From: Patescibacteria group bacterium
GTDB lineage: Bacteria; Patescibacteriota; Minisyncoccia; Phycocordibacterales; DATDWN01
NCBI GenBank assembly: GCA_040389125.1
Contig: JAZKAN010000004.1
Coordinates: 1 to 50,098 of the forward strand
DNA: 50,098 bases
Direction of reading: 5' to 3'
The translations under genes were made by a program, and so were the position numbers. The notes beneath the pieces are model-generated. The model worked only from the letters and a program-made list of their open reading frames with translations, searched no databases and was not told the origin of the DNA. Shown piece by piece: positions 31,903 to 50,098 of the stretch; the stretch's first letter is position 1, and each line of letters begins with the position of its first letter.

Positions 31903-31934
31903 ACACAAAAGGCCCCATATAAGGCCTTTTGTGT
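31903..31934. terminator. Bidirectional terminator hairpin
   Basis: Perfect 12-bp stem ACACAAAAGGCC/GGCCTTTTGTGT. Confidence 0.7.
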
Positions 31935-31954
31935 AGCATGTGAAATTAATTTAT

Positions 31955-32686: not shown

Positions 32687-32817
32687 AATGTTTGAATTTA
32701 TTAACTATATTAATTTCAATACTGAGTAGTATACCAAATATTGCTTCGGAATGAAAAGTCGAGAAATTCTACCTGGGGACAACACTATGTAGAGCTAGAT
32801 TGCAACAAATAAGGTCA

Positions 32818-33717: not shown

Positions 33718-33777
33718 GGATTGTGTAGATATATAGTATATCACGCATACATCAAACACTCTCTTTGACAGCCTCTG

Positions 33778-34206: not shown

Positions 34207-34329
34207 ATGATAACCATAGCAGATAGAATAAATAGGACAAGTTGTTCCCTCGTACTGACGAATGATTTTGGAATATATAAAAAATTTGCTTTTGGTATAG
34301 TAAAAGAGTTGGGTGTTTCCACCCAACTC

Positions 34330-34659
34330 TCATCCCGTGCCTGCTTCGTCTTGTCCATCCGTTTCTGCAATCCCAAGCCGTTGTAAAAACGATTTATCTT
34401 CTTCTTTTTCGGCACCAGGAACAGGTTTATCCTCCAATTTTGGTGTCGGAGGGGTTTCTTCAGGTTTGTTTTGTGCGAGAATATTGCAGAGTCTTCGAAG
34501 CTCTTTTAAAGGTCGCGTGTTTTTGACTGCTTCCATACAGTTAGGACACACCCCTATGATGAGCAATTCATGTTTGTCTGTAATGAAGACATTTGTGTGT
34601 CGTACTTCTCCACCACAAGAACAAATAGTCTCAATTTCTTGAACCCTTTTTGTACTCAT
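34330..34659 (-). CDS. Hypothetical small protein with CxC...CxxC zinc-ribbon-like N-terminus and acidic/Pro-rich tail (cassette gene)
   Basis: GGAGG, 8 nt, ATG (MSTKRV). Cysteine pattern ICSCGG....GVCPNC. G+C is higher than in the flanks. Confidence 0.5.
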   Translation of the reverse strand: MSTKRVQEIETICSCGGEVRHTNVFITDKHELLIIGVCPNCMEAVKNTRPLKELRRLCNILAQNKPEETPPTPKLEDKPVPGAEKEEDKSFLQRLGIAETDGQDEAGTG

Positions 34660-34723
34660 GAAACTGACCTCCTGGATCAATAGTAGCGCCTTTCAAGAGA
34701 ATTACAAATAAAAAGAATACAAC

Positions 34724-34823
34724 TTCTGGACTGTTAATTGGAGGAATATTCAGTTTGTGATGAAGTTGATAGGTTTTGTATAAAATGAAAACCGCCTCGC
34801 CTAGAGAACAACGAAGCGTTCTC
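34724..34823 (-). repeat. Intergenic repeat family F1, copy a (5'-truncated), plus the conserved terminator hairpin
   Basis: Aligns with 45484-45577: ...attgg.gg.at.ttcagtttg.gatg..ttgat.ggttttgtataaaa.gaaaacc.cctcg...cga.g.gtt.tc. Confidence 0.7.
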
Positions 34824-34843
34824 ATTAGCGGGCAGCTGTGCAA

Positions 34844-35137
34844 TTACAAGGCCTTTTGATTAGGTATTTTGGCGCCAAGTTGTCGATCAAGATGTAGTAG
34901 GTTAAAGTCGTACAACTTGAATCGTGCTTTACCCGGGTTCTTGTAGTCAGGATGTTTCATTTGTAGATTTGAGAGTACAAGGGAAATTGCCCTTTCTTCG
35001 GTGATTTCCGTAAAGGTAGAGGAATGGTAACCATACCACCCGTCCCAATCGAACTGTTCACGGAAGGTTTTTCCTTCTACTGTGACAGTACGAATGAGTC
35101 TCCCGTTATTTTGGTAGAAACGTACATTGATATTCAT
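34844..35137 (-). CDS. Hypothetical protein (cassette gene)
   Basis: A 97-aa ORF with GGGA, 6 nt, ATG. It has its own upstream motif AAATAAGTAGTATGG and a downstream hairpin terminator. Confidence 0.5.
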   Translation of the reverse strand: MNINVRFYQNNGRLIRTVTVEGKTFREQFDWDGWYGYHSSTFTEITEERAISLVLSNLQMKHPDYKNPGKARFKLYDFNLLHLDRQLGAKIPNQKAL

Positions 35138-35234
35138 GGAAGTCCCTTCTGGAATCCATACTACTTATTTCTGCTGTTTTGTAAACGAAAACGCCCAGTC
35201 GGACGAATCCGCTGGACGTGTAGTATTGCCCAAA

Positions 35235-35618
35235 CTATTGCCTAGCCCTTCTCCTTTTCTCAGCACGAGTGAGAATTTTTGTTGTGCCCTCTAGCCAACT
35301 CGAAGGGTGACGTCCTTTTGCATTCAGTACGAGAGTCCAAACTTCGATGCTAGCTTCACCACATCCCGCATCAAATAGGTCATCGATCGTGATGTTGTCT
35401 GCAAGTTGCAAGATGTCAGCGCATCTGAGTCTCTTGAATTCTCTGAGTGCAGAGTTTAATCTGCTTACTGCCTGGAGAGTATATGTTCTTCCAGACAGTA
35501 ACATCGCAAGCTCCTTGGCGGTGATTTCCTCCTCGCCAACATGGAGTACCACCCTGTTCTTTCTTTGTAGAAAACTCTTACTGAGATAGTGCTCCTGCCA
35601 TTCATCAATTCTTCTCAC
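35235..35618 (-). CDS. Hypothetical protein (cassette gene), GTG start
   Basis: TTGACA-17-TATCTT promoter, then GGAGG, 6 nt, GTG at 35618. Basic C-terminal tail (KRRRARQ). Confidence 0.5.
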   Translation of the reverse strand: MRRIDEWQEHYLSKSFLQRKNRVVLHVGEEEITAKELAMLLSGRTYTLQAVSRLNSALREFKRLRCADILQLADNITIDDLFDAGCGEASIEVWTLVLNAKGRHPSSWLEGTTKILTRAEKRRRARQ

Positions 35619-35636
35619 GTCTTGCCTCCGATTGGT

Positions 35637-35665
35637 AAGATAGCACAACTAATTAAATTTGTCAA
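35637..35665 (-). promoter_or_regulatory. Promoter TTGACA-17-TATCTT
   Basis: -35 at 35665-35660 and -10 at 35642-35637 on the minus strand, immediately downstream of F1 copy b. Confidence 0.6.
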
Positions 35666-35670
35666 CTTTT

Positions 35671-35730
35671 GCTCCCTATCGTGGGTAAGTTCAGAACTCT
35701 GGATTGGGGGAATATTCAGTTTGTGATGAA
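35671..35730 (-). repeat. Intergenic repeat family F1, copy b
   Basis: Sequence gctccctatcgtgggtaagttcagaactctggattgggggaatattcagtttgtgatgaa. The palindrome AGTTCAGAACT lies at 35688-35698. Confidence 0.75.
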
Positions 35731-35855
35731 TGAGATATTTACTTGAAAGAACGTCCTCGTGAGTGAGCATTTTTTATTCATGAAATTAGTTCTTCATCAA
35801 AAATTTTTGAAGAAATTATACACTGGACACTGGGGAGTAAGGATTTAAATTTAAT

Positions 35856-39625: not shown

Positions 39626-39665
39626 TAACAAAAAACATCTCTGCAAAATACTATACTCATTTATC

Positions 39666-40562
39666 ATGAATAAAAAAACAATTTTTACAATTTGGATCCC
39701 CTTTTTTGCCTTTCTTGTAGGCGCTCTATTATTTGCATGGAAAAATAACATAATTTTTTTCAGTAATTTTTCTCGTACCAAAACTGAGATTCCGGTTAGT
39801 ACCTTGCCAGCGAATGTTCAATCTGTGTTTCAGTATAATTTTAGCGTACCTGGTGTACTCTATGAATCAGGTACAGCAGACGAAAGTAGTAGTCCGTATT
39901 GGTGGCTAGATTCTGGGGGTCAGTTGATTGTAGGTGAAAATAGTGGAAAAACAATTCATGGAAGCCTCGGATCAAATAACAACTGGCGACTCGCATACGC
40001 CAATGCCAATCCAGAAGATACAAACAACGGATACAATCCACAAAATATTTTTCGACTTATTACGAGAAATACTTGGCATGATTTTGAGCAGGAAGCATAT
40101 TTTAAAATTGACACATACAACATAAGTACAAGTATAAACCGTAACGAATCTAACGGACTACTGCTTTTTAACAGGTATGTTGATGGTGACAATTTGTATT
40201 ATACTGGGATTCGTGTGGATGGTGCCGCGGTAATAAAGAAAAAATATAAGGGCGTGTATTATACACTTGCATACAAACAATTTTTTCCAGGAACATACAA
40301 TATTGTTTCGAATCCAAATCTGTTGCCACAAAATGTGTGGATTGGTATACGCAGTCAAGTTGTCACTTCCGCATCAAGTACAGTACATATAAAGCTATAT
40401 ACAGACATTGGAAAAACAGGGAACTGGAAACTGGTTGCTGAGGCGATTGACGATGGAATTTCCTTTGGTGGGGAAATAATTGATAACATTGCTTCGGGTG
40501 GAATTCGCACAGATTTTATGGATGTTGATTTTAAGGATTATAAAATTAAAGAGTTGGAATAG
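39666..40562 (+). CDS. Secreted LamG/concanavalin-like domain protein
   Basis: Signal anchor. Paralogous to the N-terminal half of 40546-42228 (S.YWWL.SG.QL..G...G.TI.GS....PQN.FRL..R......YF.......S.NR...N...L..RY.D..N.Y...IR.DG...IKKK..GVY.TLA). Confidence 0.6.
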   Translation: MNKKTIFTIWIPFFAFLVGALLFAWKNNIIFFSNFSRTKTEIPVSTLPANVQSVFQYNFSVPGVLYESGTADESSSPYWWLDSGGQLIVGENSGKTIHGSLGSNNNWRLAYANANPEDTNNGYNPQNIFRLITRNTWHDFEQEAYFKIDTYNISTSINRNESNGLLLFNRYVDGDNLYYTGIRVDGAAVIKKKYKGVYYTLAYKQFFPGTYNIVSNPNLLPQNVWIGIRSQVVTSASSTVHIKLYTDIGKTGNWKLVAEAIDDGISFGGEIIDNIASGGIRTDFMDVDFKDYKIKELE

Positions 40563-42228
40563 CACATGTGTATCCGCAATTTCCAGTTGGCTCTGCACCC
40601 GTCATTGTTTTATAATGATTACTGATTTGAGTTTGTGAGAGCAGATAGTCATATATCGCAACTTTGCCTATTGCACCTTTAAACCATGTTTCTTTTGCCA
40701 TTGTTCCAATATTGAGCGGCGAATTTCCAGCTTTAGGTATGATTTTGTACTGACTCATACAGCCTGTTGGAAGATGATCTGCAAAACTCTGCTGTACTCC
40801 ATTGACCCATATATTTATTGTTCCAGGATAGAGACTGGAACAACCAGTTGGTGTTGTCAGTGTCTGGTATTCTGCAACGACATGAAGCCATTGTCCCGGG
40901 TGCAAGACGTTTGTACCAGGTTGCCAGTCAGCAGCAGCACCGAGACCTGCGGTAGGGTTGAATACATATGCAGAAAGTCTGCTATATCGATTTTCTGAAT
41001 TTGTCGCATTATACATTCTTGCTTCCCATTCACAGGTTGGTGAATAGCTCTGACATTTTCCCATCCAGTCAATATATCCGTACCCACTGTCATTTGAAAA
41101 TTGTAATGTGTCTGGTCGAATCCACGCTTCCCATGTCATTTTGTGTGTTGTTGAAATGGATAACTGAGGGTTTGAGGCAACAGTAACGTACTGATTGTAT
41201 CCATTAAAACTAGCAACTGGGTTACCATTTGGCATCGTAGATAAAAGTGCTACTCCACCCATGTACGTTCCATTATTATTGTGATTACTTTTATCCATTT
41301 CTATACTCGCTGTAGTCGAACTCATTGCGAGATACATAACAGGGCTATCTTTTAGAACTACTGAGTCGTAGGTTGGTTGAGTCGGCAACGGAACGGGTGT
41401 GACATCAACAAGCTGAAAATCATCAAACAGCGTATCAGCAAAGTCACTCTGGATTCCCACGAGACCAGGGGCAGTAATTGCTCTTCCGTATTTACTGAAA
41501 TCATCATCTGCAGTTAATTCAAGTTTCCATATACCGGTTTTTCCAATATCAGAATAAAATGATAGGGTCGTAGTTCCTGTCAGTGAATCAATTGCTATTA
41601 GTTTGAGACCAATCCACGTATTAAGTGGAATTAAATCTGGATTCAAAATATCACTATATACTCCTGGTAGTATTTTTTTTGAAGCAAGTGTTTGATATAC
41701 ACCATTCATTTTCTTTTTTATTGTTACAGTGCCGTCTGAACGAATACTTGCAAAATAATAATTATTATCATCTATATATCGTGCAAGCAGAGATTCAGCA
41801 TTATACGGGTGACGATTTACACTGTTTGAGAGATTGTTTTTTGTACGATTAAAATATATTTGTGCTGAAGTGTGTAAAACTGGTGTGCGAAAAATCAATC
41901 GAAATACGTTTTGTGGATGCACTCCTCCATCTGACGATGTATAAAAATTTGTAGTATACAGTTTGTTCCATATATTGGTTACGGGAATACTGCCTGTGAT
42001 TGTACTGCCTACTCCATTTCCTATTACAAGTTGTGCACCAGATGCGAGCCACCAATACTGACTGGTACTTGTTGTTGCTGTACTTGATTCATCAAGTGTG
42101 CCTGAGGAACTAAATGGGTATGAGAAGGGGAGCGTTGCGGCTGCGTCTACTGTTTCACTTAAATAATAATTGCAGAAAACAATAATGAGTAAATAATAAA
42201 ATACCTGTTGCACAGATTTATTTTTCAT
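40546..42228 (-). CDS. Secreted protein with two LamG-like domains
   Basis: Signal peptide and the paralogous module above, plus a second LamG_3-like domain (MTWEAWIRPD...WLHVVAEY...INIWVNGV). Its 3' end overlaps the convergent gene by 17 nt. Confidence 0.65.
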   Translation of the reverse strand: MKNKSVQQVFYYLLIIVFCNYYLSETVDAAATLPFSYPFSSSGTLDESSTATTSTSQYWWLASGAQLVIGNGVGSTITGSIPVTNIWNKLYTTNFYTSSDGGVHPQNVFRLIFRTPVLHTSAQIYFNRTKNNLSNSVNRHPYNAESLLARYIDDNNYYFASIRSDGTVTIKKKMNGVYQTLASKKILPGVYSDILNPDLIPLNTWIGLKLIAIDSLTGTTTLSFYSDIGKTGIWKLELTADDDFSKYGRAITAPGLVGIQSDFADTLFDDFQLVDVTPVPLPTQPTYDSVVLKDSPVMYLAMSSTTASIEMDKSNHNNNGTYMGGVALLSTMPNGNPVASFNGYNQYVTVASNPQLSISTTHKMTWEAWIRPDTLQFSNDSGYGYIDWMGKCQSYSPTCEWEARMYNATNSENRYSRLSAYVFNPTAGLGAAADWQPGTNVLHPGQWLHVVAEYQTLTTPTGCSSLYPGTINIWVNGVQQSFADHLPTGCMSQYKIIPKAGNSPLNIGTMAKETWFKGAIGKVAIYDYLLSQTQISNHYKTMTGAEPTGNCGYTCAIPTL

Positions 42229-42435
42229 ACATGAATATATTTGAGTGAATAAAAATTACACTCTAAATATAAGGTGTATTTCTGATGAACACCTGTGGAT
42301 AAGATATTTTCACCATATATTCACAATCTATCATGAATTTTTTGTGAATATTAGCCATGGTATTTGATGAAGATGCATCCCAAAAAATATTCAAAAATAA
42401 TTTTTACATTTACACAAGTGTGTATTTAGAACCTG

Positions 42436-42484
42436 TTTTGTATAAAAAGAAACCACCCGAGGAGCGGATGGCTTCTTGGGTGGG
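42436..42484 (-). terminator. Terminator module family F2, copy 1
   Basis: ttttgtataaaaagaaACCACCCgaggagcggatggcttcttGGGTGGg. This is nearly identical to 46650-46694. Confidence 0.65.
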
Positions 42485-42511
42485 TGAGACAGTTTTTTGA
42501 AAGTGGAACAG

Positions 42512-43012
42512 TTAGTCAACATTTATTACAAATCGGTTTTCACGCAGTCTCCTACTCATGTCGCTACAGACAAGAGCCCAGGCAGGGAAGGATTCTGCCA
42601 ATCCATCGAACAACTTTTGTTTCCTTCTGTCGGTAGTGAATCTGCTTGCTCGGTCGTACAGAGATTGTCCAATTTGGTCGTACCACTCAACATTATGTCG
42701 TCGGCGCATTTGATCACGAAAGAATCCAGCAAACAGTAGCACCTGCGACCCACCAATTTCCAGTATTTCGGAATTCACAGTTGGTTGCTGGAACATATAG
42801 TATTCAAGAACTCCAACAAGCTCAGTTGTGAATGGCATGGATTCTGTATCAAAGCGTGACGTCTGTGAGTAATGTGCCAACACACTCGCCACATACAGCA
42901 TCTGATCAACATTCAACCTCTTCGTTCCAAGTGCTTCACGAAGACTTGTCGAGAAGAAATTAAAAGCTCTTGCCGAATCAACCCCAATCAATTCTTCGAA
43001 TTCCTGGTCCAT
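42512..43012 (-). CDS. Hypothetical protein (cassette gene)
   Basis: P2 promoter, GGAGG, 8 nt, ATG (MDQEFEEL). 166 aa, no recognised motif. Confidence 0.5.
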   Translation of the reverse strand: MDQEFEELIGVDSARAFNFFSTSLREALGTKRLNVDQMLYVASVLAHYSQTSRFDTESMPFTTELVGVLEYYMFQQPTVNSEILEIGGSQVLLFAGFFRDQMRRRHNVEWYDQIGQSLYDRASRFTTDRRKQKLFDGLAESFPAWALVCSDMSRRLRENRFVINVD

Positions 43013-43020
43013 TGTGAACT

Positions 43021-43066
43021 CCTCCGATAGGGAAGATACCATGAGTAACAAGAAATGTAAAGGAAT
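43021..43066 (-). promoter_or_regulatory. Promoter/RBS module family P2, copy 1 (TTTACA-17-TATCTT-CCCTATCGGAGG)
   Basis: -35 at 43061-43056, -10 at 43038-43033 and RBS GGAGG at 43025-43021 on the minus strand. Confidence 0.65.
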
Positions 43067-43102
43067 TTATCTTATAAACAAAGACACCACTTAGAGATAA
43101 AT

Positions 43103-43633
43103 TCACTCATTGAGATGAAGACTATTCTTGTTGTCTCGATTCAACATACTAAAAATAATTGAAATAATAATTACTGTTTCAGCAAGTATTCCTCCATATG
43201 ATCCGACAAATGCGTCGTACAGGATCGCAAATATACTTGCGATCACAGATATTTTTCGCAATACGTTCAAATCTGACTGCCACTTTGCATAGACAATAGA
43301 AGAAATTCCAAAAAGTGCGAATAGACTGAAAAATCCTTCCCAAACATATAGTGTTGCGATAGTCATTGCACCAATAGACAGTACAAGAAAATATTTACTT
43401 GCAATCCATCGGTATTTTTCTTTGAAGAGAAGAAGTAGTGTGATGATTACATGCAATCCGACGAGAACCACACCTGTCCATGCTGAGAGAAAATAAAAAT
43501 GTACGCAGTAGACGATAAGACTCATGAGCTGAAAAAACAAAATACTCCTTCGTGTCTTTGTGTGAAATGAAAAAGCAAATAATCCAAGTGCGACGAGTGC
43601 TATGGATTGAATGAGTAGTTGGTGTATGTCCAT
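43103..43633 (-). CDS. Polytopic inner-membrane protein (YgjV-like, tentative)
   Basis: Low G+C, about 6 TM helices, about 176 aa. The internal two-fold repeat pattern resembles the YgjV family as I recall it. Confidence 0.45.
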   Translation of the reverse strand: MDIHQLLIQSIALVALGLFAFSFHTKTRRSILFFQLMSLIVYCVHFYFLSAWTGVVLVGLHVIITLLLLFKEKYRWIASKYFLVLSIGAMTIATLYVWEGFFSLFALFGISSIVYAKWQSDLNVLRKISVIASIFAILYDAFVGSYGGILAETVIIISIIFSMLNRDNKNSLHLNE

Positions 43634-43699
43634 GCTTTTAGTATAACAGAAAAGCCCACCGAAGCAGGCTTCTGCCATGCTTGAGTGGGCGGTGGAACT

Positions 43700-44344
43700 T
43701 TAGAACAGTGATAACCGAGTACCGAATCCGATCGAGTGTTTATCACCGTCCTGGAGTCCGAAGACTGCGAAGGAAAAACGCCCCGTCGCTTTCGGATGAA
43801 CCAAGAACCAGTACTCGGCGTAGTCGGGTCGATTACCTGCGAAGAATCGCCGATAGCCTTCGACCGATGCTTGCACGTTTTTGGCGACAGTGAAGCGATT
43901 GCTTGCTCCAGCAAGAAGTAAGTTGTTTGGACGGATGCCGATGAATCTCGGCAACGCTGTGACGAACAAATGATGCAGTGGCTTCTTCAGTTTCGGAACC
44001 AGTGCATGAATGTTCACGCGAGGTCCTATCTGATGGAACCCGAGTGTCAGATTCGGCACCGCACCTGTCTCAGTTTGCACCGAGAAGACAGATTGCTTGC
44101 CTGGGGTGAACACCACCAGATGGTTTGTGAACAGAGGCTCATGAGGAGCCACTTCCATGAAACCGAATCCATTCAGACTGCCGACGCTGGTTTTCAGACT
44201 CCACCCATATTGCGGATAGAGAACTGCGCCTTGCGATCCACCGAATGTGTCGACCCATGCATGGACTTGACCGCGAGCTTCCTGAGCGAAGAGCCCGAGA
44301 GAAGCTGAAAACAACAGTGTGATACTACCGATTACACGTTTCAT
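43700..44344 (-). CDS. Secreted protein with outer-membrane beta-barrel-like features
   Basis: GAGGA RBS and signal peptide MKRVIGSITLLFSASLGLFAQEA. Alternating hydrophobic beta-strand pattern. The C-terminus ...GFGTRLSLF ends in Phe, like the OMP beta-signal. Confidence 0.5.
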   Translation of the reverse strand: MKRVIGSITLLFSASLGLFAQEARGQVHAWVDTFGGSQGAVLYPQYGWSLKTSVGSLNGFGFMEVAPHEPLFTNHLVVFTPGKQSVFSVQTETGAVPNLTLGFHQIGPRVNIHALVPKLKKPLHHLFVTALPRFIGIRPNNLLLAGASNRFTVAKNVQASVEGYRRFFAGNRPDYAEYWFLVHPKATGRFSFAVFGLQDGDKHSIGFGTRLSLF

Positions 44345-44422
44345 TTTTGTATCCTCAAAGAACTGCAATTTAAATCCTAAATCATATCGCGAATTACATT
44401 TCAATTCGTAATCTGAATATAG

Positions 44423-44446
44423 GAGGCGACGATGTTTTGTCGCCTC
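44423..44446 (-). terminator. Terminator hairpin family F3, copy 1
   Basis: GAGGCGAC-gatgtttt-GTCGCCTC. The loop matches 48787-48816, with a different, compensated stem. Confidence 0.55.
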
Positions 44447-44461
44447 TGGTCTGCCGAAGTG

Positions 44462-44932
44462 CTAATACTCGCGCTCCTGCATGCCGTCGTAGTTGGTAAA
44501 ATCGTGATCGTGAATGCGCGTGTCGTCGCTGACGGGGCAATCCTCACAGATGTAAGAAGTTGCAGGCAAGTCAGCCGCGAATTCCGACGGGCGACGGATG
44601 AACCATGCGTTCTTACTACACTTGCAGGTCATCCGATACGCCAGACCGCCGACCTTGGTGTTACCCGACGGGTCGTAGCTGAACTCTTTCTCAATCTGAC
44701 CGTTGTCGTCTCGCTTGTATTCCGTCCAGAACCGTGTCTCAGTCGGATCGTAATTCAGACGCGGGTTGGCCTTGTAGTACGCCGTCTCGCTCCGCGTGAG
44801 TTCACTCATGCAAGCACTCATCTTGGTTGCATCATCGAAACGAATCGTCTCGAGTTTACCCTTTTCGTTTTCGGGGTCGATGACGAGCACGAAGCCCGCC
44901 ACAATTCCAGTGATCTGTTTGGTCGCGGTCAT
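44462..44932 (-). CDS. Hypothetical protein with CxC...CxxC motif (cassette gene)
   Basis: GGAGAAATC-ATG, 156 aa, cysteine pattern MTCKCSK....YICEDCP. The antisense ORF 44432-44962 is judged spurious. Confidence 0.5.
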   Translation of the reverse strand: MTATKQITGIVAGFVLVIDPENEKGKLETIRFDDATKMSACMSELTRSETAYYKANPRLNYDPTETRFWTEYKRDDNGQIEKEFSYDPSGNTKVGGLAYRMTCKCSKNAWFIRRPSEFAADLPATSYICEDCPVSDDTRIHDHDFTNYDGMQEREY

Positions 44933-45053
44933 GATTTCTCCTTTGAAAGAACATCCATTTGAATTTCCAGAATCAACTCACAATCTCGTGATTGTGATTC
45001 TGAATACTGGAGAGGTCAATCCCGATTGACTGACCTCTGTTGATAGAAAAGAG

Positions 45054-45353
45054 CTACTCCGTTACGAACAGCCAGTTGCCGATGCGAGCCAATTCGACTC
45101 GCACATCCCCGTTGGGAGCCTGCCGAGTGCAGTGCTCGAGTGCGATCGTCGCAATCTCTCTGACGCGCTCGAGGGTTCCACCGCCGAGAAAGGCAGTCTC
45201 TTCCGTTGACCACGACTCGTGATCGAAACGCCCGAGACACTTTCCCGCCGTGATCTTCTCGCGGAAGGTGAGACTTTCGATAGCATCAATCTGCGCCACC
45301 AACCAGTCTCGATCAATTCTTGCCTCTAAACGCTCCATCAATCCGTTTGCCAT
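45054..45353 (-). CDS. Hypothetical protein (cassette gene)
   Basis: P1 promoter TTGACA-17-TATAAT, GGAGG RBS, ATG. 99 aa. Confidence 0.5.
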   Translation of the reverse strand: MANGLMERLEARIDRDWLVAQIDAIESLTFREKITAGKCLGRFDHESWSTEETAFLGGGTLERVREIATIALEHCTRQAPNGDVRVELARIGNWLFVTE

Positions 45354-45375
45354 AACTGTTTCTAGCCTCCGAGGT

Positions 45376-45460
45376 CAATTATACACCTATTATCACTTTC
45401 TGTCAAGTATTTTGAATAACAAAAAATGGCTCTGTTAAGCCATAATTTGGAAAGAGCTCC
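45376..45460 (-). repeat. 85-nt direct repeat, copy A: terminator hairpin T1 plus promoter P1
   Basis: Minus strand: GGAGCTC...ATGGCTtaacagAGCCATTTTTTG...TTGACA(45406-45401), 17 nt, TATAAT(45383-45378). It matches 49964-50048. Confidence 0.8.
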
Positions 45461-45577
45461 CTATCGTGGACAAGTTCAGAACTCTGGATTGGAAGGGGAT
45501 TCAGTTTGAGATGGGGTTGATGAGTTTTGTATAAAAAGAAAACCACCTCGTCTGAGAGAACGACGAGGCGTTTTCTC
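45456..45577 (-). repeat. Intergenic repeat family F1, copy c (full length, with terminator hairpin 45546-45568)
   Basis: gctccctatcgtggacaagttcagaactctggattggaaggggattcagtttgagatggggttgatgagttttgtataaaaagaaaaccaCCTCGTCtgagagaacGACGAGGcgttttctc. Confidence 0.8.
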
Positions 45578-45595
45578 AGTACGGGCGGTTTGGGC

Positions 45596-45901
45596 TTACG
45601 AAAGTACTCCTATGTTTCCGATGCAATGCGGAATCCAAATTTCCGCACTCGGCCAGTTTTCGAGAAGGGATTTTGGTGTTGGTTTCAAAATGACAACCAT
45701 ACCATCGCAGAAGTGATTAACTTGCGTCACCACTCCTTTAAAATCTTCCCATCTTCCTAGGAAGCGCACAGGTATGTGCACTTCCAGGCTCTGATTTAGA
45801 ACCTGGACGAAGTCGATGTGTTTAATAACTTCGCGACGTATCCCGATAAAGAAACTACCAGGTTTGACGGGGCGACCATCTTGCGTAAGTGTTCGATACA
45901 T
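45596..45901 (-). CDS. Hypothetical protein (cassette gene)
   Basis: TTGACA-16-TATTAT promoter, then GAGG, 8 nt, ATG at 45901 (an alternative GTG is at 45910). About 101 aa. Confidence 0.45.
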   Translation of the reverse strand: MYRTLTQDGRPVKPGSFFIGIRREVIKHIDFVQVLNQSLEVHIPVRFLGRWEDFKGVVTQVNHFCDGMVVILKPTPKSLLENWPSAEIWIPHCIGNIGVLS

Positions 45902-45968
45902 TTCCGACACCTCAGCTTTCTCTTGAATGGAGTTGACCAGACTGCTCTGTGCAGTAGGTTCTGATATA

Positions 45969-45996
45969 ATAATAGCACAGCAATAACAACTGTCAA
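45969..45996 (-). promoter_or_regulatory. Promoter TTGACA-16-TATTAT
   Basis: -35 at 45996-45991 and -10 at 45974-45969 on the minus strand, 6 nt downstream of F1 copy d. Confidence 0.55.
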
Positions 45997-46002
45997 GTAC
46001 TA

Positions 46003-46082
46003 GCTCCCTATCGTGGGCAAGTTCAGAACTCTGAATTGGAAGGGGATTCAGTTTGAGATGAGTTTGATGAGTTTTGTATAAT
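46003..46082 (-). repeat. Intergenic repeat family F1, copy d
   Basis: gctccctatcgtgggcaagttcagaactctgaattggaaggggattcagtttgagatgagtttgatgagttttgtataatc. Confidence 0.8.
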
Positions 46083-46135
46083 CAAAATCCGCTCCCTCCA
46101 AAGCAGATTTTGACTCTGTTGGATGAAGCGGATGG

Positions 46136-46591
46136 TTACAACCACACGACATAGTGCTGGTCCTCAAAGCACCTGCGTCCTTGCGCCAGGAATTTCTGAG
46201 TTAGCGATTTCATGAGCTCGAACGGGCCACATGCTTCGAATATTGCCCCGTTGTCATACTCGTCGACATGACCACCATGTTCCCAGAAACACGGGTTTCT
46301 GACCCAGCCCCGCAACTGGACCATGTTGGTGTCGATACCTCGCCCTTTTTTTGTGAGTGTGATGGTGAGGTTACCCTCAAGGGCTAGCAGGTTGGACTTA
46401 ACGGCCTGACGCTCTTCCATGAAATCTTCGGCAGTCCATCCCTCCTTGTAAGTTTTGACTTCGACCAGTTTCGAGCCCTTCGCAGCTTTAATGGCTTCAG
46501 CTAGGGCTTGAAATAAGTCTTCATCCGTCGGGTATTCATGCCTCTTCTCATAAACCTCAGGGAAGAGAGATCCAATGCTGATTACTCTCAT
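46136..46591 (-). CDS. Hypothetical protein (cassette gene)
   Basis: P2 promoter, GGAGG, 11 nt, ATG (MRVISIGS). The ORF-track start at 46711 would run through the promoter and the upstream terminator. Confidence 0.5.
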   Translation of the reverse strand: MRVISIGSLFPEVYEKRHEYPTDEDLFQALAEAIKAAKGSKLVEVKTYKEGWTAEDFMEERQAVKSNLLALEGNLTITLTKKGRGIDTNMVQLRGWVRNPCFWEHGGHVDEYDNGAIFEACGPFELMKSLTQKFLAQGRRCFEDQHYVVWL

Positions 46592-46602
46592 ATGTTCCTT
46601 TG

Positions 46603-46648
46603 CCTCCGATAGGGAAGATACCACAAATATAAAGTGGTGTAAAGGAAT
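46603..46648 (-). promoter_or_regulatory. Promoter/RBS module family P2, copy 2
   Basis: -35 TTTACA at 46643-46638 and -10 TATCTT at 46620-46615, followed by CCCTATCGGAGG. Matches 43021-43066 except in the spacer. Confidence 0.65.
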
Positions 46649-46649
46649 C

Positions 46650-46694
46650 TTTTGTATAACAAAACCACCCGAGGAGCGGGTGGCTTCTGGGTGG
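46650..46694 (-). terminator. Terminator module family F2, copy 2
   Basis: cttttgtataacaaaACCACCCgaggagcgggtggcttctGGGTGG. Confidence 0.65.
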
Positions 46695-46707
46695 ACTAGT
46701 GACGCGG

Positions 46708-46986
46708 TCAACCCCGTTTGAGGCTTTCGATGAATGCTTCCTGACGTTCAGTTTGAGTGCGAACGAGTTGTTCGTTTTCCTCGCGTATTCGTTCTGCGTG
46801 AATATCGGCGAGAGGTCGAAGTACGACACCTCTCTCACTGAGCAACATGCTGTGCGTCCTGCAAAATGCCAGAATCTTGCCATTTTTCACAATGGCATTG
46901 TTTTCCCCAGGTTTCTTCCAGAATTCTTTACTGCATGGAGGAAAATCGCACTCGACATCCTCTCTCGCCATTGATTCGTAACTCAT
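46708..46986 (-). CDS. Hypothetical small protein with Cys/His cluster and coiled-coil tail (cassette gene)
   Basis: GGGGAGG RBS, 92 aa, cysteine/histidine pattern ECDFPPC......FCRTH. Confidence 0.5.
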   Translation of the reverse strand: MSYESMAREDVECDFPPCSKEFWKKPGENNAIVKNGKILAFCRTHSMLLSERGVVLRPLADIHAERIREENEQLVRTQTERQEAFIESLKRG

Positions 46987-47040
46987 TGGATACCTCCCCT
47001 TCCTCAGTTGATACTACTGATTTTTGAAAGAAACACAAAT

Positions 47041-47068
47041 GAAAACCGCCACGCCTATGAGACGTGGC
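47041..47068 (-). terminator. Rho-independent terminator
   Basis: On the minus strand: GCCACGtctcataggCGTGGCggTTTTC. Confidence 0.55.
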
Positions 47069-47090
47069 TAGTCTCCATTGGCGGACGGTA

Positions 47091-47645
47091 TTATGCTTTG
47101 AACGCATCGGCATTCTCGAGATGGATGAGTGCCATGATGATGGCTTGTTTGGTGTAATCCACCCTGTTCACTCTTCCGTTTGTCAGAAGCCCGACTGCTC
47201 CTTCGGAGTTGCCTAGCTTTGGGTTTTCAGTCAAACCCACCGCTTTGAACGCATCGTTGAGGTCCATTCCTTGTGAGTGAATGAGCTCAATGACTTTTGG
47301 CGGACATTCAAAGGCGGATGATAGTCCGATGTGATAATCAGTGCCGTCGTAGATTACGCAGGCACAAATATCCATCATCCCACTTTTGGTGTGCGGAACT
47401 TCAAACAGCCCACTCTCGATACCGAAACCCCACGTGACATCTCCGCTTCCATGCCCAAACGCACCTCGTGCTCGGTTCTTTGCACCTGTAATTATTTCGT
47501 TGAGTGACTTTGGTTGTTCAGAAACACCCGACGGAATATTGGCTGCTGTAAAAACATCCAACCTGTCGAATATGCGGTAGAGAGGGATGAGTTCTCGAAC
47601 TGCATTCTGCTTTATTCCATTTCCAGATCCGACACAGATTTTCAT
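47091..47645 (-). CDS. Inosine/xanthosine triphosphatase-like NTPase (YjjX/DUF84 family)
   Basis: Motifs SGVSEQP, GAKNRA and EGAVGLLTNGRVNRVDYTKQAIIMAL parallel E. coli YjjX (SGVPEQP, GARNRV, GAIGVFT.G.LTR...Y.QAVILAL). Confidence 0.75.
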   Translation of the reverse strand: MKICVGSGNGIKQNAVRELIPLYRIFDRLDVFTAANIPSGVSEQPKSLNEIITGAKNRARGAFGHGSGDVTWGFGIESGLFEVPHTKSGMMDICACVIYDGTDYHIGLSSAFECPPKVIELIHSQGMDLNDAFKAVGLTENPKLGNSEGAVGLLTNGRVNRVDYTKQAIIMALIHLENADAFKA

Positions 47646-47692
47646 GTATTGCCTCCAGTCATCATACTACTTATTTTTGAAAGAAAAACAAC

Positions 47693-48193
47693 TTATATCC
47701 ATTGCAAAAAATCCTCTACATTATCATCAGGTTTAAACGTGAGAGTATTCTCGCTTTCAGCTGGAATCTCTAATTCAGCAATGGCTTGATCCAGATATTC
47801 TTGCTTAACATCATGACGCTCTCCAGTTTCCAGATTCTTCTTTTGTCGTTCTGTTTGTACCTCAATCGGAGTATCGAGTAAAATGATTTTTGTTTGTACT
47901 CCGAGGGGTTCTGCTACTTTTCGTATTTCTTCTCTGTGTTCGAAGCGAGTATTAGTACTGTCGTACACAACAGATTTTCCTTCACTTAAATACTGATAGA
48001 TTTTTTCCTTACACATCTCAAGTAACATTCTCCACTGATCGTCGCTATCCTGATCAAGATTGAGTTCTTTTTCTTTTTCAAGAAATAGAGCATCCTGGCT
48101 CACCAATATTGCCCCAGTCCGCTCTGAAATCTTTTTTGCGAGTGTAGATTTGCCTGAAAATCCAACTCCGCACATGATATATAGGGTAGGCAT
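47693..48193 (-). CDS. P-loop kinase-like ATP-binding protein (AAA_33-like)
   Basis: Walker A CGVGFSGKSTLA. Start at MPTLYIM, 1 nt after the GNAT stop (taacATG). Low G+C. Confidence 0.7.
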   Translation of the reverse strand: MPTLYIMCGVGFSGKSTLAKKISERTGAILVSQDALFLEKEKELNLDQDSDDQWRMLLEMCKEKIYQYLSEGKSVVYDSTNTRFEHREEIRKVAEPLGVQTKIILLDTPIEVQTERQKKNLETGERHDVKQEYLDQAIAELEIPAESENTLTFKPDDNVEDFLQWI

Positions 48194-48194
48194 G

Positions 48195-48740
48195 TTATTT
48201 CTTCCACTCACTAGCGAGTAAACTATATACTTCCATATCCACAAAGTGGTTGTAGAGCCATTCTGACTGACGAGCGATACCTTCAAAAGTAAATCCTAAT
48301 TTTTTCGGTAGAGCAGAACTTTTAGCGTTTCCAATAGCACAGCAAACTTCAATGCGATTCAGTTTCTTTTCTGCAAATAGGTAGTCAATAACAACTTTCA
48401 GGGAATCACTCATAATTCCTTTACCTTGAAACTCTTCTGCAAGCCAGTAGGCGAAAGATGTTTTCTTGTGGTTTAGGTCCAAAGGATAAATGCCGATCCC
48501 GCCAATGAGTTTATTTTCATACCAGATCGACAAATCAATCCCTTCATCTTTTGATAGTCTTTCAATACTTTCTTTTATGTAATTTTCGGTATCAGCTACT
48601 GTCTTATCATCATCCAACCATGGGAGCCATTCGCGAAGATGCGTATCATTCTTTTTTGCCACATCAAAAAGTATTGGTGCATCTTCCAAAACATGTGAAC
48701 GTAATTCAAGATTTTCTCTGACTGGTAGGATGAGTGTCAT
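48195..48740 (-). CDS. GNAT-family N-acetyltransferase (RimJ/RimL-like)
   Basis: Motif region YWLAEEFQGKGIMSD...V..Y.F......RIE..C...N..S.ALPKKLGF..EG. Confidence 0.8.
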   Translation of the reverse strand: MTLILPVRENLELRSHVLEDAPILFDVAKKNDTHLREWLPWLDDDKTVADTENYIKESIERLSKDEGIDLSIWYENKLIGGIGIYPLDLNHKKTSFAYWLAEEFQGKGIMSDSLKVVIDYLFAEKKLNRIEVCCAIGNAKSSALPKKLGFTFEGIARQSEWLYNHFVDMEVYSLLASEWKK

Positions 48741-48786
48741 GGGATAAGAATAGCAAAGTTTCTATTTTTTGTATAAGAATTGATAT

Positions 48787-48816
48787 GAAAAAGCCCCACG
48801 ATGTTTTGTGGGGCTT
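48787..48816 (-). terminator. Terminator hairpin family F3, copy 2
   Basis: aaaaAGCCCCAC-gatgtttt-GTGGGGCTt. On the minus strand the stem is followed by TTTTT. Confidence 0.7.
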
Positions 48817-48843
48817 CAGTCGAATCACTCGACTCTGAAAGAA

Positions 48844-49176
48844 CTACTGCTCGGTCATCGGATCTTCACTTAACCGATCGAGAAACATTTGATGGTGAAA
48901 AGCTTCCAACTCGGTCGGTTCGATAGACTGCTCGTAGCAGTATCCTTTACCTGTGAGTATATGCTCGTCCTTCTGCTTGGTTGCCCATCGGCAGTGCGGA
49001 CATTCGAACCATCCACGAGCGATGAGAGTTTTTTGATACTCCCACGCTTCGTTGTAGACAGTCATCGCCCAAGATTTTTCTTGATCAGGAACGATGATGC
49101 TATTGATGTGTTTGTAGACATGGGCGTTGAAGCCCAGAAAGTACGCGATTTTGAAATACAACTCTGTGAGCTTCAT
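48844..49176 (-). CDS. Hypothetical protein with CPHC motif (cassette gene)
   Basis: GAGGAG, 4 nt, ATG (MKLTELYF). About 110 aa. Confidence 0.5.
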   Translation of the reverse strand: MKLTELYFKIAYFLGFNAHVYKHINSIIVPDQEKSWAMTVYNEAWEYQKTLIARGWFECPHCRWATKQKDEHILTGKGYCYEQSIEPTELEAFHHQMFLDRLSEDPMTEQ

Positions 49177-49276
49177 AAATCTCCTCAAGGAACTTTGATT
49201 TTACTCCCGTCAAAACATTCTTCGAGAAGAAAACTTTGATGGAAGGGTGAGTCGTGTTGACCTCACCCAGAAAAAA

Positions 49277-49885
49277 CTAATCTGTGCTGTCGAGAATGTA
49301 TTGTCGAACATCGGCGAGCGAGCTACCTGTGCCATAGAAATCGGCTTGCCGTTTCGCTTCTTCCTGCTCGAGCTTTTGACTGAAGGGGACAAAGAGTTTT
49401 GGATTCTTCTGAACGAGATTCTCTGCGGCCATACTCCAACTCCTCTTGTCCACCTGTCCTTTGTGGTAGCCCGTCACCTTGGAAATCAGGTCCTCAGCGA
49501 TGACGCGTCCTTCTTCTCTTGAAGCTTGGACATGCATCTTTGTCCGAAGTGCATTCGCACCGCAGAACAAAAATGTTGGGCGCACCCGAAGTTCTCCACT
49601 TGGCTCCCAGAATGAATGCGTAGGTGTATTCGCTCGAGAAAACTCCTGAAGTTTGTAGTCACGGACGAGGCATACTGCCTCGGTGGAGTTAATCTGGTTG
49701 TAATACAAAATGGGACCAGACTTCACAGCAACCGCAACCATTCTTCTCCCTCGCTGAATTTTCAGACGGCGATTGAGAAACTGTACCAAGCGCTTGATTG
49801 CGAAAACAATAATCGCGACACAAACGCCCGATATCACGAGCAGGTCAAACTTCTGAAGAAAATCAAAAAACTGATTCGTAAACAT
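49277..49885 (-). CDS. Hypothetical membrane-anchored protein (cassette gene)
   Basis: P1 promoter, a ~75-nt leader, then GGAG, 8 nt, ATG (MFTNQFF). One N-terminal TM helix. Confidence 0.5.
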   Translation of the reverse strand: MFTNQFFDFLQKFDLLVISGVCVAIIVFAIKRLVQFLNRRLKIQRGRRMVAVAVKSGPILYYNQINSTEAVCLVRDYKLQEFSRANTPTHSFWEPSGELRVRPTFLFCGANALRTKMHVQASREEGRVIAEDLISKVTGYHKGQVDKRSWSMAAENLVQKNPKLFVPFSQKLEQEEAKRQADFYGTGSSLADVRQYILDSTD

Positions 49886-49963
49886 TTTACATCTCCAACT
49901 CATCCTATCATCCTCATTCTCCGAAAACCGAGGTTCTCGTGACGGGTGATGGATTTCTGCATA

Positions 49964-50048
49964 GAATTATACACCCATTTAGGTATAATGTCAAGTATTT
50001 TGAACAACAAAAAATGGCTCTGTTAAGCCATAGTTTTGTGAGAGCTCC
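49964..50048 (-). repeat. 85-nt direct repeat, copy B: tRNA 3' end, terminator hairpin T1 and promoter P1
   Basis: Minus strand: TTGACA(49994-49989), 17 nt, TATAAT(49971-49966). Hairpin ATGGCT/AGCCAT at 50014-50031. GGAGCTC at 50048-50042 overlaps the tRNA acceptor end. Confidence 0.8.
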
Positions 50049-50098
50049 GCGGGTAGGGATCGAACCTACGACCAGTCGCTTACACGAGTCCTCTCATT
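50045..50098 (-). tRNA. tRNA gene, 3' part only (runs off the window); isoacceptor not determinable
   Basis: The reverse complement reads ...GTAGG-TTCGATC-CCTAC-CCGCGGA-G. That is a canonical T-arm with a TTCGATC loop, a 7-nt acceptor strand and a discriminator. The ~22 nt before the T-arm suggest a long variable arm. CCA is not encoded. Confidence 0.7.

Follow-up and report, generated by a model that had tools for sequence, protein, structure and literature searches.

The window analysed here is a 50-kb contig stretch (50,098 nucleotides), and its last 8 kb hold 13 co-directional genes, g01 to g13, all on the minus strand between positions 42512 and 49885, as the original prediction had stated for every ORF from 42.4 kb to the right edge. 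The start codons that we chose gave the gene-caller's exact products for 12 of the 13 genes, g12 being left out of the look-up. In transcription order, from right to left, the array opens with g01 (49277..49885), which encodes a 202-aa orphan with a hydrophobic segment at its N-terminus, and g02 (48844..49176), which encodes a 110-aa orphan with a CPHC motif and is followed by an intrinsic terminator at ~48790-48815. Then come a low-GC GNAT acetyltransferase gene (g03, 48195..48740; Acetyltransf_3), an AAA_33 P-loop kinase gene that starts 1 nt past the g03 stop codon (g04, 47693..48193), and the gene of a YjjX-like NTPase (g05, 47091..47645; NTPase_I-T) with a terminator at 47048-47068. Since a −10-like TATTCT lies only 6 nt upstream of the g03 ATG, the g03 mRNA is possibly leaderless. 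The 92-aa orphan gene g06 (46708..46986) is followed by terminator T1 (46665-46679), whose TATACAAAA tail runs to 46650, and g07 (46136..46591; 151-aa orphan) is preceded by promoter P2 (TTTACA-17-TATCTT, 46615-46643). After g08 (45596..45901; 101 aa) and g09 (45054..45353; 99-aa orphan) lies g10 (44462..44932), whose 156-aa product belongs to a conserved family with CxC...CxxC and DFTNYDGMQEREY at the C-terminus. The array closes with g11 (43700..44344), for a 214-aa orphan with a signal-peptide-like N-terminal segment and a C-terminal ...SLF; g12 (43103..43633), a low-GC YgjV-family membrane protein gene with a −10-like TATACT 6 nt upstream of its ATG; and g13 (42512..43012), for a 166-aa orphan, with P2 at 43033-43061 and T1 at 42453-42467. 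The TATACAAAA tail of this last terminator extends to 42436, the left end of the array.

Domain searches agreed with the GNAT, P-loop kinase, YjjX-like and YgjV assignments made earlier. The nine proteins that had been placed in no family had no match in Pfam, PHROGs, PADLOC or NCBIfam, apart from one NCBIfam match of g08 far below threshold. g08 is a member of a real protein family, and its predicted fold is confident and has no structural match, BFVD included. The cargo is unrelated from gene to gene, with no paralogy among its members. As had also been noted, the window holds no recombinase: none of its large ORFs contains a recombinase, integrase or transposase domain.

The composition of the array is deviant. 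GC3 reaches 0.70 in g10, 0.66 in g09, 0.59 in g07 and g02, 0.54 in g11 and 0.53 in g01, compared with 0.24-0.45 in the window's remaining, native genes (single exception, 0.52); g05, g06, g08 and g13 are merely mildly raised (0.43-0.48), and g03, g04 and g12 are native-like (0.32-0.33). The contrast drawn earlier with flanking low-G+C genes owes part of its strength to the surface-polysaccharide region at 27.5-42.5 kb, whose GC content is unusually low. Along the contig, tetranucleotide distance is highest at 43-47 kb (0.32-0.345), a level equalled only by a low-complexity surface-protein gene. Because the GC3 of six genes departs from that of nearly all native genes, these data support the proposal that the array genes were acquired.

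The original prediction gave almost every gene a private near-consensus promoter, which proved too generous, as promoters are clear for only ~5 genes. Those of g01 and g09 match the full consensus (12/12), that of g08 (TTGACA-16-TATTAT, 45969-45996) scores 11/12, and g07 and g13 have P2. The other array genes show weak or no sigma-70 matches, and g01-g02, g03-g04 and g09-g10-g11 look like operons. The recurrent repeat modules, on the other hand, were confirmed: the repeats D1 (80 nt, 95%), D2 (60 nt, 92%), D3 (62 nt, 77%), D5 (42 nt, 83%) and D6 (37 nt, 84%) contain cores of 20-23 nt for which 0.00 matches are expected by chance, and TTTTGTATAA, for which 0.25 occurrences are expected, is present 6 times. 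A second mini-array built from the same modules, overlooked in the original prediction, lies on the minus strand at 34330..35735. In transcription order it comprises a copy of the D1 element, hereafter X (35668-35735), a promoter (TTGACA-17-TATCTT, 35637-35665), m1 (35235-35618), m2 (34844-35137), a degenerate X (34719-34784) and m3 (34330-34659), and no tRNA adjoins it.

Within the 50-kb contig the modules do not behave as generic housekeeping promoters or terminators: X, the terminator with its TATACAAAA tail and P2 have no copy outside the two arrays, and HisRS, TruB, BipA, enolase, Adk and the contig's other housekeeping genes are not flanked by them. This distribution also speaks against the idea that the region is a chimera of the assembly or simply a cluster of native genes, which a metagenome-derived contig of alternating composition might suggest. 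GC-rich and low-GC genes, moreover, alternate several times with common modules spanning the boundaries, and the GC-rich g02 and the AT-rich GNAT gene are paired in the same arrangement in independent assemblies, so that we find this explanation barely credible.

X is an 80-nt repeat with a 37-nt core, CCAAT-N4-GTTCTGAACTT-NN-CCACGATAGGGAGC. Besides the mini-array copy, the window has copies on the minus strand at 46000..46085, which ends in CCACGATAGGGAGC and is directly followed by the g08 promoter, and at 45455..45537, at whose end (GGGAGCTC) D2 copy 2 begins. The three window copies and those of a Minisyncoccia MAG (L004), a Saccharibacteria MAG (L005) and six metagenomic loci (L006-L008, L011-L013) are invariant at the 31 specified bases, and similarity among all copies breaks off sharply right after GGGAGC. 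X behaves as a junction element kept across different CPR lineages. RNAalifold gave no conserved RNA fold for it (−2.85 kcal/mol), and it contains the palindrome AGTTCTGAACT; together these points fit a protein-bound DNA site. Its surroundings also carry regulatory features: in four copies X precedes a TTGACA box by 22-23 nt, where activator sites typically lie, six copies are followed by a terminator, which would suit a transcribed 3' element, a −10-like TATACA precedes X in the window, and the 3' segment of X is complementary to the P2 5'UTR. X and the modules might then be cis-regulatory DNA that came with a single pool of imported, co-regulated genes, with X as an upstream operator or activator site (palindrome at ~−65), a small RNA or a 3'-UTR element; the pool would come from one donor lineage and have been duplicated and shuffled by ordinary homologous recombination, with no dedicated site-specific system. 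In agreement with this, locus L018 keeps X-like DNA, promoter and 5'UTR together upstream of a g08 homologue, the X-like DNA having diverged along with the gene, and g10 homologues are flanked by similar hairpin/ATTCAG/GTTCTTTC/AGGAG spacers. The lack of a conserved RNA structure speaks against it, and it leaves unexplained both the 31 bases kept invariant across CPR classes amid unrelated flanks and the junctions described next; we hold it to be unlikely, if worth keeping in mind.

The array had been said to end at a tRNA gene, but all that its right edge has is a tRNA-Asn-type 3' fragment of 30 nt, cut by the contig end (50045..50074, minus strand; variable loop TGGTC, T arm GTAGG-TTCGATC-CCTAC, acceptor strand CCGCGGA, discriminator G), which neither ARAGORN nor Rfam called as a tRNA. 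Compared over 23 nt with the 3' end of the tRNA-Asn(GTT) of L007, it shows 2 differences, and the 24 nt upstream in the RNA direction (50075-50098, where the contig ends) do not fit a tRNA anticodon arm. D2 copy 1 (49989..50048, minus strand) begins at GGAGCTC, at the tRNA end, and includes a terminator hairpin (50014-50031) before it reaches the −35 box of promoter P1 (TTGACA-17-TATAAT, 49966-49994). D2 copy 2 (45401-45460, minus strand) follows X, with its terminator at 45426-45443 and P1 at 45378-45406, so that the same terminator and promoter DNA (92% identity) stands after the tRNA end at 50048 and after X at 45460. A parallel is found in another population. L011 and L008 join a methyltransferase gene and X to a terminator-Y1-Y2-ORF219 segment, and L012, L013 and L007 join tRNA-Asn to the same DNA (98.7% identity), with the switch between X and tRNA-Asn falling exactly at GGAGC|CAAAAC. 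Identical downstream DNA joined at one base to either a tRNA-Asn 3' end or X is the signature of a recombination junction, although L011 and L012 could in principle be two paralogous loci instead of an insertion polymorphism. In several assemblies contigs end at the tRNA-Asn/X region, which is what a site that is repeated or polymorphic should cause.

Single-gene units between direct repeats of X are formed by g08 (547 bp) and by a GC-rich orphan in L004. This topology would suit an integron-like platform new to CPR, in which X is the recombination site borne by the cassettes, like attC, insertion takes place at the tRNA-Asn 3' end or at a resident X, like attI, and a dedicated recombinase inserts and excises promoter-carrying cassettes singly. 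The invariance and sharp end of X, the co-directional array of unrelated genes, the mini-array headed by X away from any tRNA and the reappearance of cargo families beside different neighbours all fit such a platform. These two units are, however, the only ones known: segments between X copies range in length from 0.55 to 4 kb and in content from 1 to 7 genes (5-7 in all the others), and therefore there is not one gene per cassette. Moreover, X has no attC-like hairpin, the repeats being unlike attC as originally stated; no recombinase gene adjoins X in the loci seen (window, L004, L005, L011 and L012); the X-like DNA on the 5' side of g08 in L018 co-diverges with the gene; and part of the array is the cargo of a conventional element, as described below. 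We consider this platform improbable, and the different kind of cassette system put forward earlier is not demonstrated.

No close relative of the species that the window comes from is present in the databases, and only g02 and g03 have cluster mates at ≥90%, enolase, BipA and the other genes being singletons. g02 shares 89% aa identity with an ORF in L021/L022 (90%-identity cluster with 4 members), g04 shares 78% with an ORF in L021, and positions 48198-49177 match L021 at 84% nt identity over 992 bp. In L021 a large serine recombinase abuts tRNA-Ser(CGA) and a rolling-circle Rep of the gpII type is present; the g02-GNAT-kinase block, the only one with close relatives elsewhere, is thus carried as ordinary cargo by an integrative element of the serine-recombinase/Rep kind that sits at a tRNA. 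A g10 homologue in L003 likewise sits in a same-strand small-ORF array adjoining a serine recombinase that overlaps tmRNA. Reshuffling at the level of genes is seen in other metagenomes, where g10 and g08 homologues keep similar flanking non-coding modules beside non-homologous neighbours. Small co-directional genes, several of them promoter-gene-terminator units, together with the Rep and recombinase of L021 and the inoviruses reported from CPR (PMC6813254), could also speak for a degraded prophage, e.g., a filamentous phage, or another small one with rolling-circle replication, that had integrated, with the array made of phage genes and morons. But the nine orphans have no PHROG match, the window has no Rep, morphogenesis ATPase or coat-like set, g10 relatives are absent from IMG/VR, phage and plasmid DNA gave no match and the g08 fold is unmatched in BFVD, which makes a prophage very improbable.

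Among known systems, integron cassette arrays and CALINs resemble the array in their co-directional unrelated small genes, the recurring site between them and single-gene units bounded by that site, but the window array has no IntI, attC hairpin or R''/R' boxes, many of its units have their own promoter and terminator and most inter-site segments are multigenic. The rAID-1 arrays of Bacteroidales (Ross et al., bioRxiv 10.1101/471110), invoked in the original prediction, share co-directional genes, skewed GC, repetitive intergenic sequences and mostly unannotated small proteins; the likeness is an analogy only, as the window array has neither a XerD-like recombinase at its head nor recognisable immunity families, its GC is skewed upward instead of downward and its host belongs to a different phylum. 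Phage morons are likewise deviant-GC promoter-gene-terminator units set between other genes, although the window units have no surrounding prophage backbone. The serine-recombinase and Rep elements of L021 and L003 have small same-strand ORFs, and their cargo includes the g02-GNAT-kinase block and a g10 homologue, yet they contain no X and target Ser-type tRNA or tmRNA instead of the Asn type, and the window has no recombinase or Rep. Islands grown at tRNAs by tandem accretion, including integrase-less, cis-mobilisable remnants, share with the array the position at a tRNA-type 3' end, foreign composition, repeated junction sequences between segments, distal segments without a recombination module, occupied and empty alternative junctions in a related population and cargo common to a recombinase-bearing element at another tRNA. 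They differ in that X is no simple copy of a tRNA 3' end (only GGAGC(TC) is common), keeps its 37-nt core without variation from one CPR class to another and also heads a tRNA-less array, and no integrase is seen here.

Taken together, these comparisons point, with a moderate degree of probability, to a tRNA-linked island that arose as one site-specific insertion followed another, its recombinase and replication genes being off-contig or lost. The horizontally acquired accessory genes would lie downstream of a tRNA-Asn-type attachment site, in a chromosome that is probably of CPR/Patescibacteria type, and the island would have grown by tandem accretion, each step adding a small integrative element or the cargo of one. 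X would mark the joints between accreted segments, and X and the tRNA-Asn 3' end would be alternative left arms of one junction whose common part, GGAGC(TC), has roughly the length of a recombinase crossover core. In this manner the window would contain three or more accreted segments (50041-46002, 46001-45455 and 45454-~42436), with a smaller insertion headed by X at 34.3-35.7 kb. The foreign composition, the anatomy of the junctions, the conservation of X between genomes, the alternative junctions of the other population and the presence of the g02-g04 block in an element that has a recombinase are shown, whereas we infer that X serves for recombination, which kind of recombinase acted and in what order the insertions came. 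Several observations weigh against this accretion: none of the X-bearing loci seen has a linked recombinase, the mini-array is not beside any tRNA, and the overlap between X and the tRNA end is only 5-7 nt, shorter than the direct repeats of classical tRNA islands. Moreover, D2 identity runs ~85 nt past the tRNA end into the promoter, for which homologous recombination or duplication is equally possible, the co-divergence in L018 is as expected of a linked regulatory region, and four X copies have an activator-like position.

In an island formed by accretion, the cargo would be expressed from its own imported signals, i.e., sigma-70 consensus promoters, GGAGG ribosome-binding sites and intrinsic terminators, much as phage morons are. 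Rather than a new cassette machine, which is unproven, the array looks like a patchwork of imported small genes, the cargo left by integrating mobile elements.

The 13 co-directional minus-strand genes (g01 to g13) at the right end of the window were confirmed between positions 42512 and 49885, and in 12/12 genes looked up (g12 was left out of the 13) the called start codons gave exactly the proteins of the gene caller. GC3 reached 0.70 in g10, 0.66 in g09, 0.59 in g07 and g02, 0.54 in g11 and 0.53 in g01, and was 0.43–0.48 in g05, g06, g08 and g13, compared with 0.24–0.45 (one at 0.52) for the other genes of the window; g03 (GNAT acetyltransferase), g04 (kinase) and g12 (YgjV membrane protein) had values of 0.32–0.33. 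GC2 was lower than GC1 in every orphan, as in coding sequence, and tetranucleotide usage departed furthest from that of the contig's housekeeping part at 43–47 kb. The G+C contrast with the flanks noted at first stands as regards the deviant composition, but its sharpness is partly due to a low-GC block (0.35–0.39) at 27500–42500. This block, which encodes a GT2/chitin-synthase-like transferase, a polysaccharide deacetylase, LamG-domain proteins and a MASE1 hybrid histidine kinase with a response regulator, may be a variable surface-polysaccharide region. At 37–864, 13845–25195 and 28888–29586 of the window, large genes with GC2 of 0.54–0.63 and GC3 of 0.24–0.37 encode Ser/Thr/Ala/Gly-rich proteins, some with Kelch, fn3, PKD or PG_binding domains, which are probably secreted surface proteins.

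Profile searches against Pfam, PHROG, PADLOC and NCBIfam assigned none of the nine orphan proteins (g01, g02, g06–g11 and g13) to a family, as the original prediction had suggested, and no paralogy was found among them. Likewise, the large ORFs of the 50-kb contig contained no recombinase domain. The claim that almost every gene is monocistronic proved overstated, because g01–g02, g03–g04 (g04 starts 1 nt past the stop) and g09–g10–g11 are likely operons, and because consensus promoters precede only five genes, namely g01 and g09 (12/12 matches), g08 (11/12), and g07 and g13 (TTTACA-17-TATCTT), the sigma-70 match being weak or absent for all others. The low-GC genes g03 and g12 have no Shine-Dalgarno sequence (regions 48741–48760 and 43634–43655); the presence of −10-like boxes 6 nt upstream of their ATG (TATTCT and TATACT, respectively) suggests that their mRNAs are leaderless.

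The repeat families described for the intergenic regions are real, with cores far above chance expectation. A T-run with TATAC(A/T/C)AAA behind it is common to seven terminators, all (7/7) on the minus strand and found only in the main array or in a second one. Since no module adjoins HisRS, TruB, BipA, enolase, Adk, UppP or the other housekeeping genes of the contig, the modules are not generic promoter/terminator DNA, at least within these 50 kb. The sequence GTTCTTTC was considered as a boundary motif and discarded, as it is not enriched (5 found vs 2.6 expected). Read on the opposite strand, the TTATACAAAA tail gives TTTTGTATAA(T), an extended −10 resembling TGnTATAAT; it occurs at 46053–46082 (+), where a TTGAGA-18-TATAAT promoter (11/12) is formed, and also at 42436, 45525, 46650, 48767 and 34774. 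The TGTATAAT sites are thus possible antisense promoters that would fire back into gene 3′ ends.

The 80-nt repeat D1 is a junction element, which we call X and whose 37-nt core is identical across different CPR classes. The core reads CCAAT-N4-GTTCTGAACTT-NN-CCACGATAGGGAGC, and an exact search for it retrieved a Minisyncoccia MAG (L004), a Saccharibacteria MAG (L005) and three metagenome contigs (L006–L008), as well as L011–L013. In the alignment the 31 specified core bases are invariant and similarity ends directly after GGGAGC in all copies. A search with nhmmer found four copies in the window and no others: 46085–46000, 45537–45455, 35735–35668 (with GGGAGC ending at 46002, 45455 and 35668, respectively) and a degenerate copy at 34784–34719. 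ARAGORN and Rfam made no calls on X. A structured RNA was ruled out by the absence of a consensus fold (RNAalifold −2.85 kcal/mol), and the idea that X is a piece of RNase P, 5S, tmRNA or SRP RNA was dropped by eye, with no match in Rfam. Given the lack of a conserved fold and the palindrome AGTTCTGAACT within it, X has the look of a site in DNA, not of an RNA. Its invariant 3′ part, TTGCCCACGATAGGGA (46005–46020 and 45458–45473), is an imperfect reverse complement of TCCCTATCGGAGGCAA, a P2-type (TTTACA-17-TATCTT) 5′UTR stretch adjoining the ribosome-binding site at 46600–46615 and 43021–43040; this complementarity could be fortuitous, could stem from an inverted repeat or, should X be transcribed, could provide a pairing site.

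The right edge of the window gave no call with ARAGORN or Rfam, and a tRNA-Asn was recognised there only through contig L007, whose tRNA-Asn(GTT) matches the 30 nt at 50045–50074 (variable loop, T arm and acceptor strand). The preceding 24 nt contain no anticodon arm. The array had been said to end at a tRNA gene; what is visible is a tRNA-Asn-type 3′ fragment at the contig edge and no intact gene. Because the window is the whole contig, this fragment is either what remains of a tRNA 3′ end or an element derived from tRNA-Asn and truncated at the assembly break.

The order in L012, L013 and L007 is tRNA-Asn, followed by a block of terminator–Y1–terminator–Y2–terminator–ORF219–X, and then by a terminator and an HTH gene, Y1 and Y2 being tRNA-Asn-like elements and ORF219 a protein gene. 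In L011 and L008, from the same population, the same DNA is present from the first terminator on (98.7% identity), preceded by a methyltransferase-like gene and then X, and the switch between tRNA-Asn and X falls exactly at GGAGC|CAAAAC. The window holds a similar pair: the 60-nt repeat D2, a terminator plus a 12/12 TTGACA-17-TATAAT promoter (92% identical), lies 3′ of the tRNA-type end at 50048 and 3′ of X at 45460. What is repeated at these two positions is GGAGCTC plus 53 nt, and only 5–7 nt of it is tRNA-derived. On the basis of these alternative junctions and of D2, X and tRNA-Asn ends appear to be interchangeable left arms of one junction with a common core of 5–7 nt. We infer that site-specific recombination would have occurred at this X/tRNA-Asn junction. 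Tyrosine recombinases typically use an overlap of 6–8 bp, and serine recombinases a shorter core. The alternative junctions between contigs (L011/L008 vs L012/L013) come from a population other than the window's lineage, of which the databases contain no close relative.

The Y elements are tandem stretches of ~130–150 nt that lie directly 3′ of tRNA-Asn or X, every one with an intrinsic terminator behind it (L007 203–331 and 362–506; L011 510–640 and 665–815; L005 664–812 and 853–~1010; L004 ~5270–5410, truncated). The 3′ end of a Y element, CCTACCCGCGGAGC, is identical to the tRNA-Asn acceptor/T-stem and pairs with the 5′ end (GCTCGCGG.. or GCTCCCCGG), and L005 and L007 differ by a compensatory change; a T-loop-like box, GGATTCGAA, is followed by inserted hairpins. 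ARAGORN and Rfam returned no match for them. By their appearance they are structured RNAs derived from tRNA-Asn, or else relics of att sites. ORF219 was rejected as a partner of X, being a widespread CPR protein with no general linkage to it.

We consider it reasonably probable that the region is a tRNA-Asn-linked island built by tandem accretion, with its recombination module off-contig or lost and its cargo expressed from imported promoters. Counted from the tRNA-Asn-type end, the accreted segments would be 50041–46002 (g01–g07, ending in X), 46001–45455 (g08, ending in X) and 45454–~42436 (g09–g13), with a separate insertion at 34.3–35.7 kb, a mini-array headed by X. The latter (34330–35735), absent from the original prediction, consists of X, TTGACA-17-TATCTT, three small minus-strand genes with a GC of 0.42–0.46 (neighbours, 0.36–0.37) and the degenerate X; it contains the same modules, including the terminator plus TATACAAAA, and is not adjacent to any tRNA.

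X might instead be regulatory, as an operator upstream of promoters or as a 3′ element in a pool of genes imported together, given its fixed 22–23-nt spacing to TTGACA in four copies. X-like DNA also co-diverges with g08 at locus L018, where the homologue retains TTGACA-17-TATAAT and the 5′UTR along with a homologous TATACA tail and an X-like stretch that has diverged. We regard this regulatory role as rather unlikely; it leaves the tRNA/X alternative junction unexplained. A further reading takes X-bounded units as mobile, promoter-carrying cassettes of an undescribed site-specific system common to the CPR/Patescibacteria, in which a recombinase would join X to tRNA-Asn-type ends or to a resident X, yielding integron-like co-directional arrays but with self-expressed cassettes, and the Y elements would be part of the machinery. 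The topology fits: g08 is the sole gene between two X copies, in a unit of 547 bp, and L004 has, within AT-rich flanking genome, a GC-rich orphan that carries a TTGACA promoter of its own and is bounded by X and by X′, a variant of full length; X′ ends in ...TTGCGGAGC, nearer to the tRNA-Asn end than X. This system is doubtful, as no recombinase is linked to X at the loci seen and the single-gene units are only two. The 495-aa ORF of L004, considered as a recombinase, turned out to encode a DUF4153 membrane protein.

Among the cargo, g08 is a real family with 63 representative clusters, and its model (pLDDT 95.6) had no significant match to PDB or BFVD with Foldseek. The g10 product, with its CxC...CxxC pattern, is also conserved (13 matches); its model, of moderate confidence, gave no significant PDB match either. 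The two proteins possibly act in host or phage interaction. Genes downstream of g08 and its homologues differ between the window, L018 and L019. One homologue of g10 is a single gene in a Nomurabacteria contig (L001); others lie in GC-rich same-strand arrays in L009 (beside ychF) and L010, and, in L003, in a same-strand small-ORF array ending at a large serine recombinase; their neighbours differ at every locus while the flanking spacers are alike. In L003 (5587–7314) the recombinase gene, downstream of the small-ORF array, overlaps the tmRNA 3′ end beside smpB. The metagenome contigs L009 (1135–3302, directly adjoining AT-rich ychF), L010 and L018 carry GC-rich co-directional small ORFs in the same style, with spacers of the form hairpin-CCTCC-TGTATTCAGAT-hairpin-ATGAAATTCAGGA-GTTCTTTC-AAGGAG. 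The g11 product (43700–44344) has a signal-peptide-like N-terminus and a C-terminal ...GTRLSLF resembling an outer-membrane beta-barrel signature, which would be unexpected among the cargo of a CPR host with a single membrane. That the host belongs to the CPR is suggested by the relatives of X and g10.

Only g02 and g03 among the array genes have cluster mates at ≥90%; enolase, BipA and the rest are singletons. Window positions 48198–49177 share 84% nucleotide identity over 992 bp with L021, where a serine recombinase abuts tRNA-Ser(CGA) and is followed, in this order, by a gpII/RepSA-type Rep, a 285-aa gene, the homologue of g02, GNAT, an AAA_17 gene and the homologue of g04. This order and identity indicate that at least the g02–GNAT–kinase block is cargo of a conventional integrative element elsewhere. 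The L021 element (1–6036) has its large serine recombinase at the tRNA-Ser(CGA) 3′ end, then the rolling-circle Rep and then cargo; a longer ENA/NCBI contig (28.8 kb) encodes two recombinases and carries Rep twice. A search of the window for what might be left of the recombinase and Rep genes of L021 or L003 found nothing. A degraded prophage is a very improbable and poorly fitting origin: the hallmark genes of a prophage or inovirus with morons (Rep, morphogenesis ATPase, coat/structural) are absent from the window, the orphans have no PHROG matches, no viral relatives were found, scans of a viral collection for X and for the g10 family gave no match, and neither did BLAST of X plus D2 against phage and plasmid sequences. 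A chimera or a native gene cluster fits poorly as well, and we give it hardly any credence.

The integron/CALIN class is characterised by mostly promoterless single-gene cassettes expressed from Pc, an IntI-type tyrosine recombinase beside the array, and attC sites that are imperfect palindromes with R″/L″–L′/R′ boxes (RYYYAAC...GTTRRRY). The array is not an integron, because IntI is absent within the 50-kb contig, X has neither a conserved fold nor attC-type boxes in the alignment, as anticipated, and the array contains 12/12 and 11/12 consensus promoters and has multigenic segments. The rAID-1 arrays have a XerD-like recombinase gene at the 5′ end and at least two co-directional downstream genes with skewed GC (≤41%) and repetitive intergenic sequences (bioRxiv 10.1101/471110). 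Our array shares the co-directional genes, skewed GC and intergenic repeats, but it is not a rAID-1 member, since no XerD-like recombinase lies in the window, the GC skew is upward and the phylum is different; homologues of interbacterial immunity genes, another rAID-1 feature, were not seen with Pfam, PADLOC or NCBIfam. Among known kinds the nearest is a tRNA-linked genomic island whose accreted segments lack an integrase and whose expression units resemble morons: the att core recurs as direct repeats where segments meet, the composition is atypical and a tRNA-Asn-type fragment lies at the contig edge, but the recombinase, found with homologous cargo in L021 and L003, is missing from the window. 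Taken together, the original observation was borne out in part and its interpretation as an acquired cassette array gained partial support.

Bacteria of the CPR/Patescibacteria have tiny genomes, and little is known of how they acquire genes. The invariant X junction common to CPR classes appears to be undescribed, as does the way it is associated with tandem Y elements that resemble tRNA-Asn; literature searches in general terms (not by sequence) found nothing and Rfam contains neither. X is placed exactly where tRNA-Asn ends swap for island DNA and flanks GC-rich orphan genes; its 37-nt core would be a concrete, searchable marker of a shared CPR gene-exchange route. At least two conserved families, those of g08 and g10, are among the cargo proteins, neither like a solved structure. 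Should there be a dedicated recombinase, the system would be a new one for cassettes; otherwise the region still illustrates clearly how islands accrete in a group that has been little studied.
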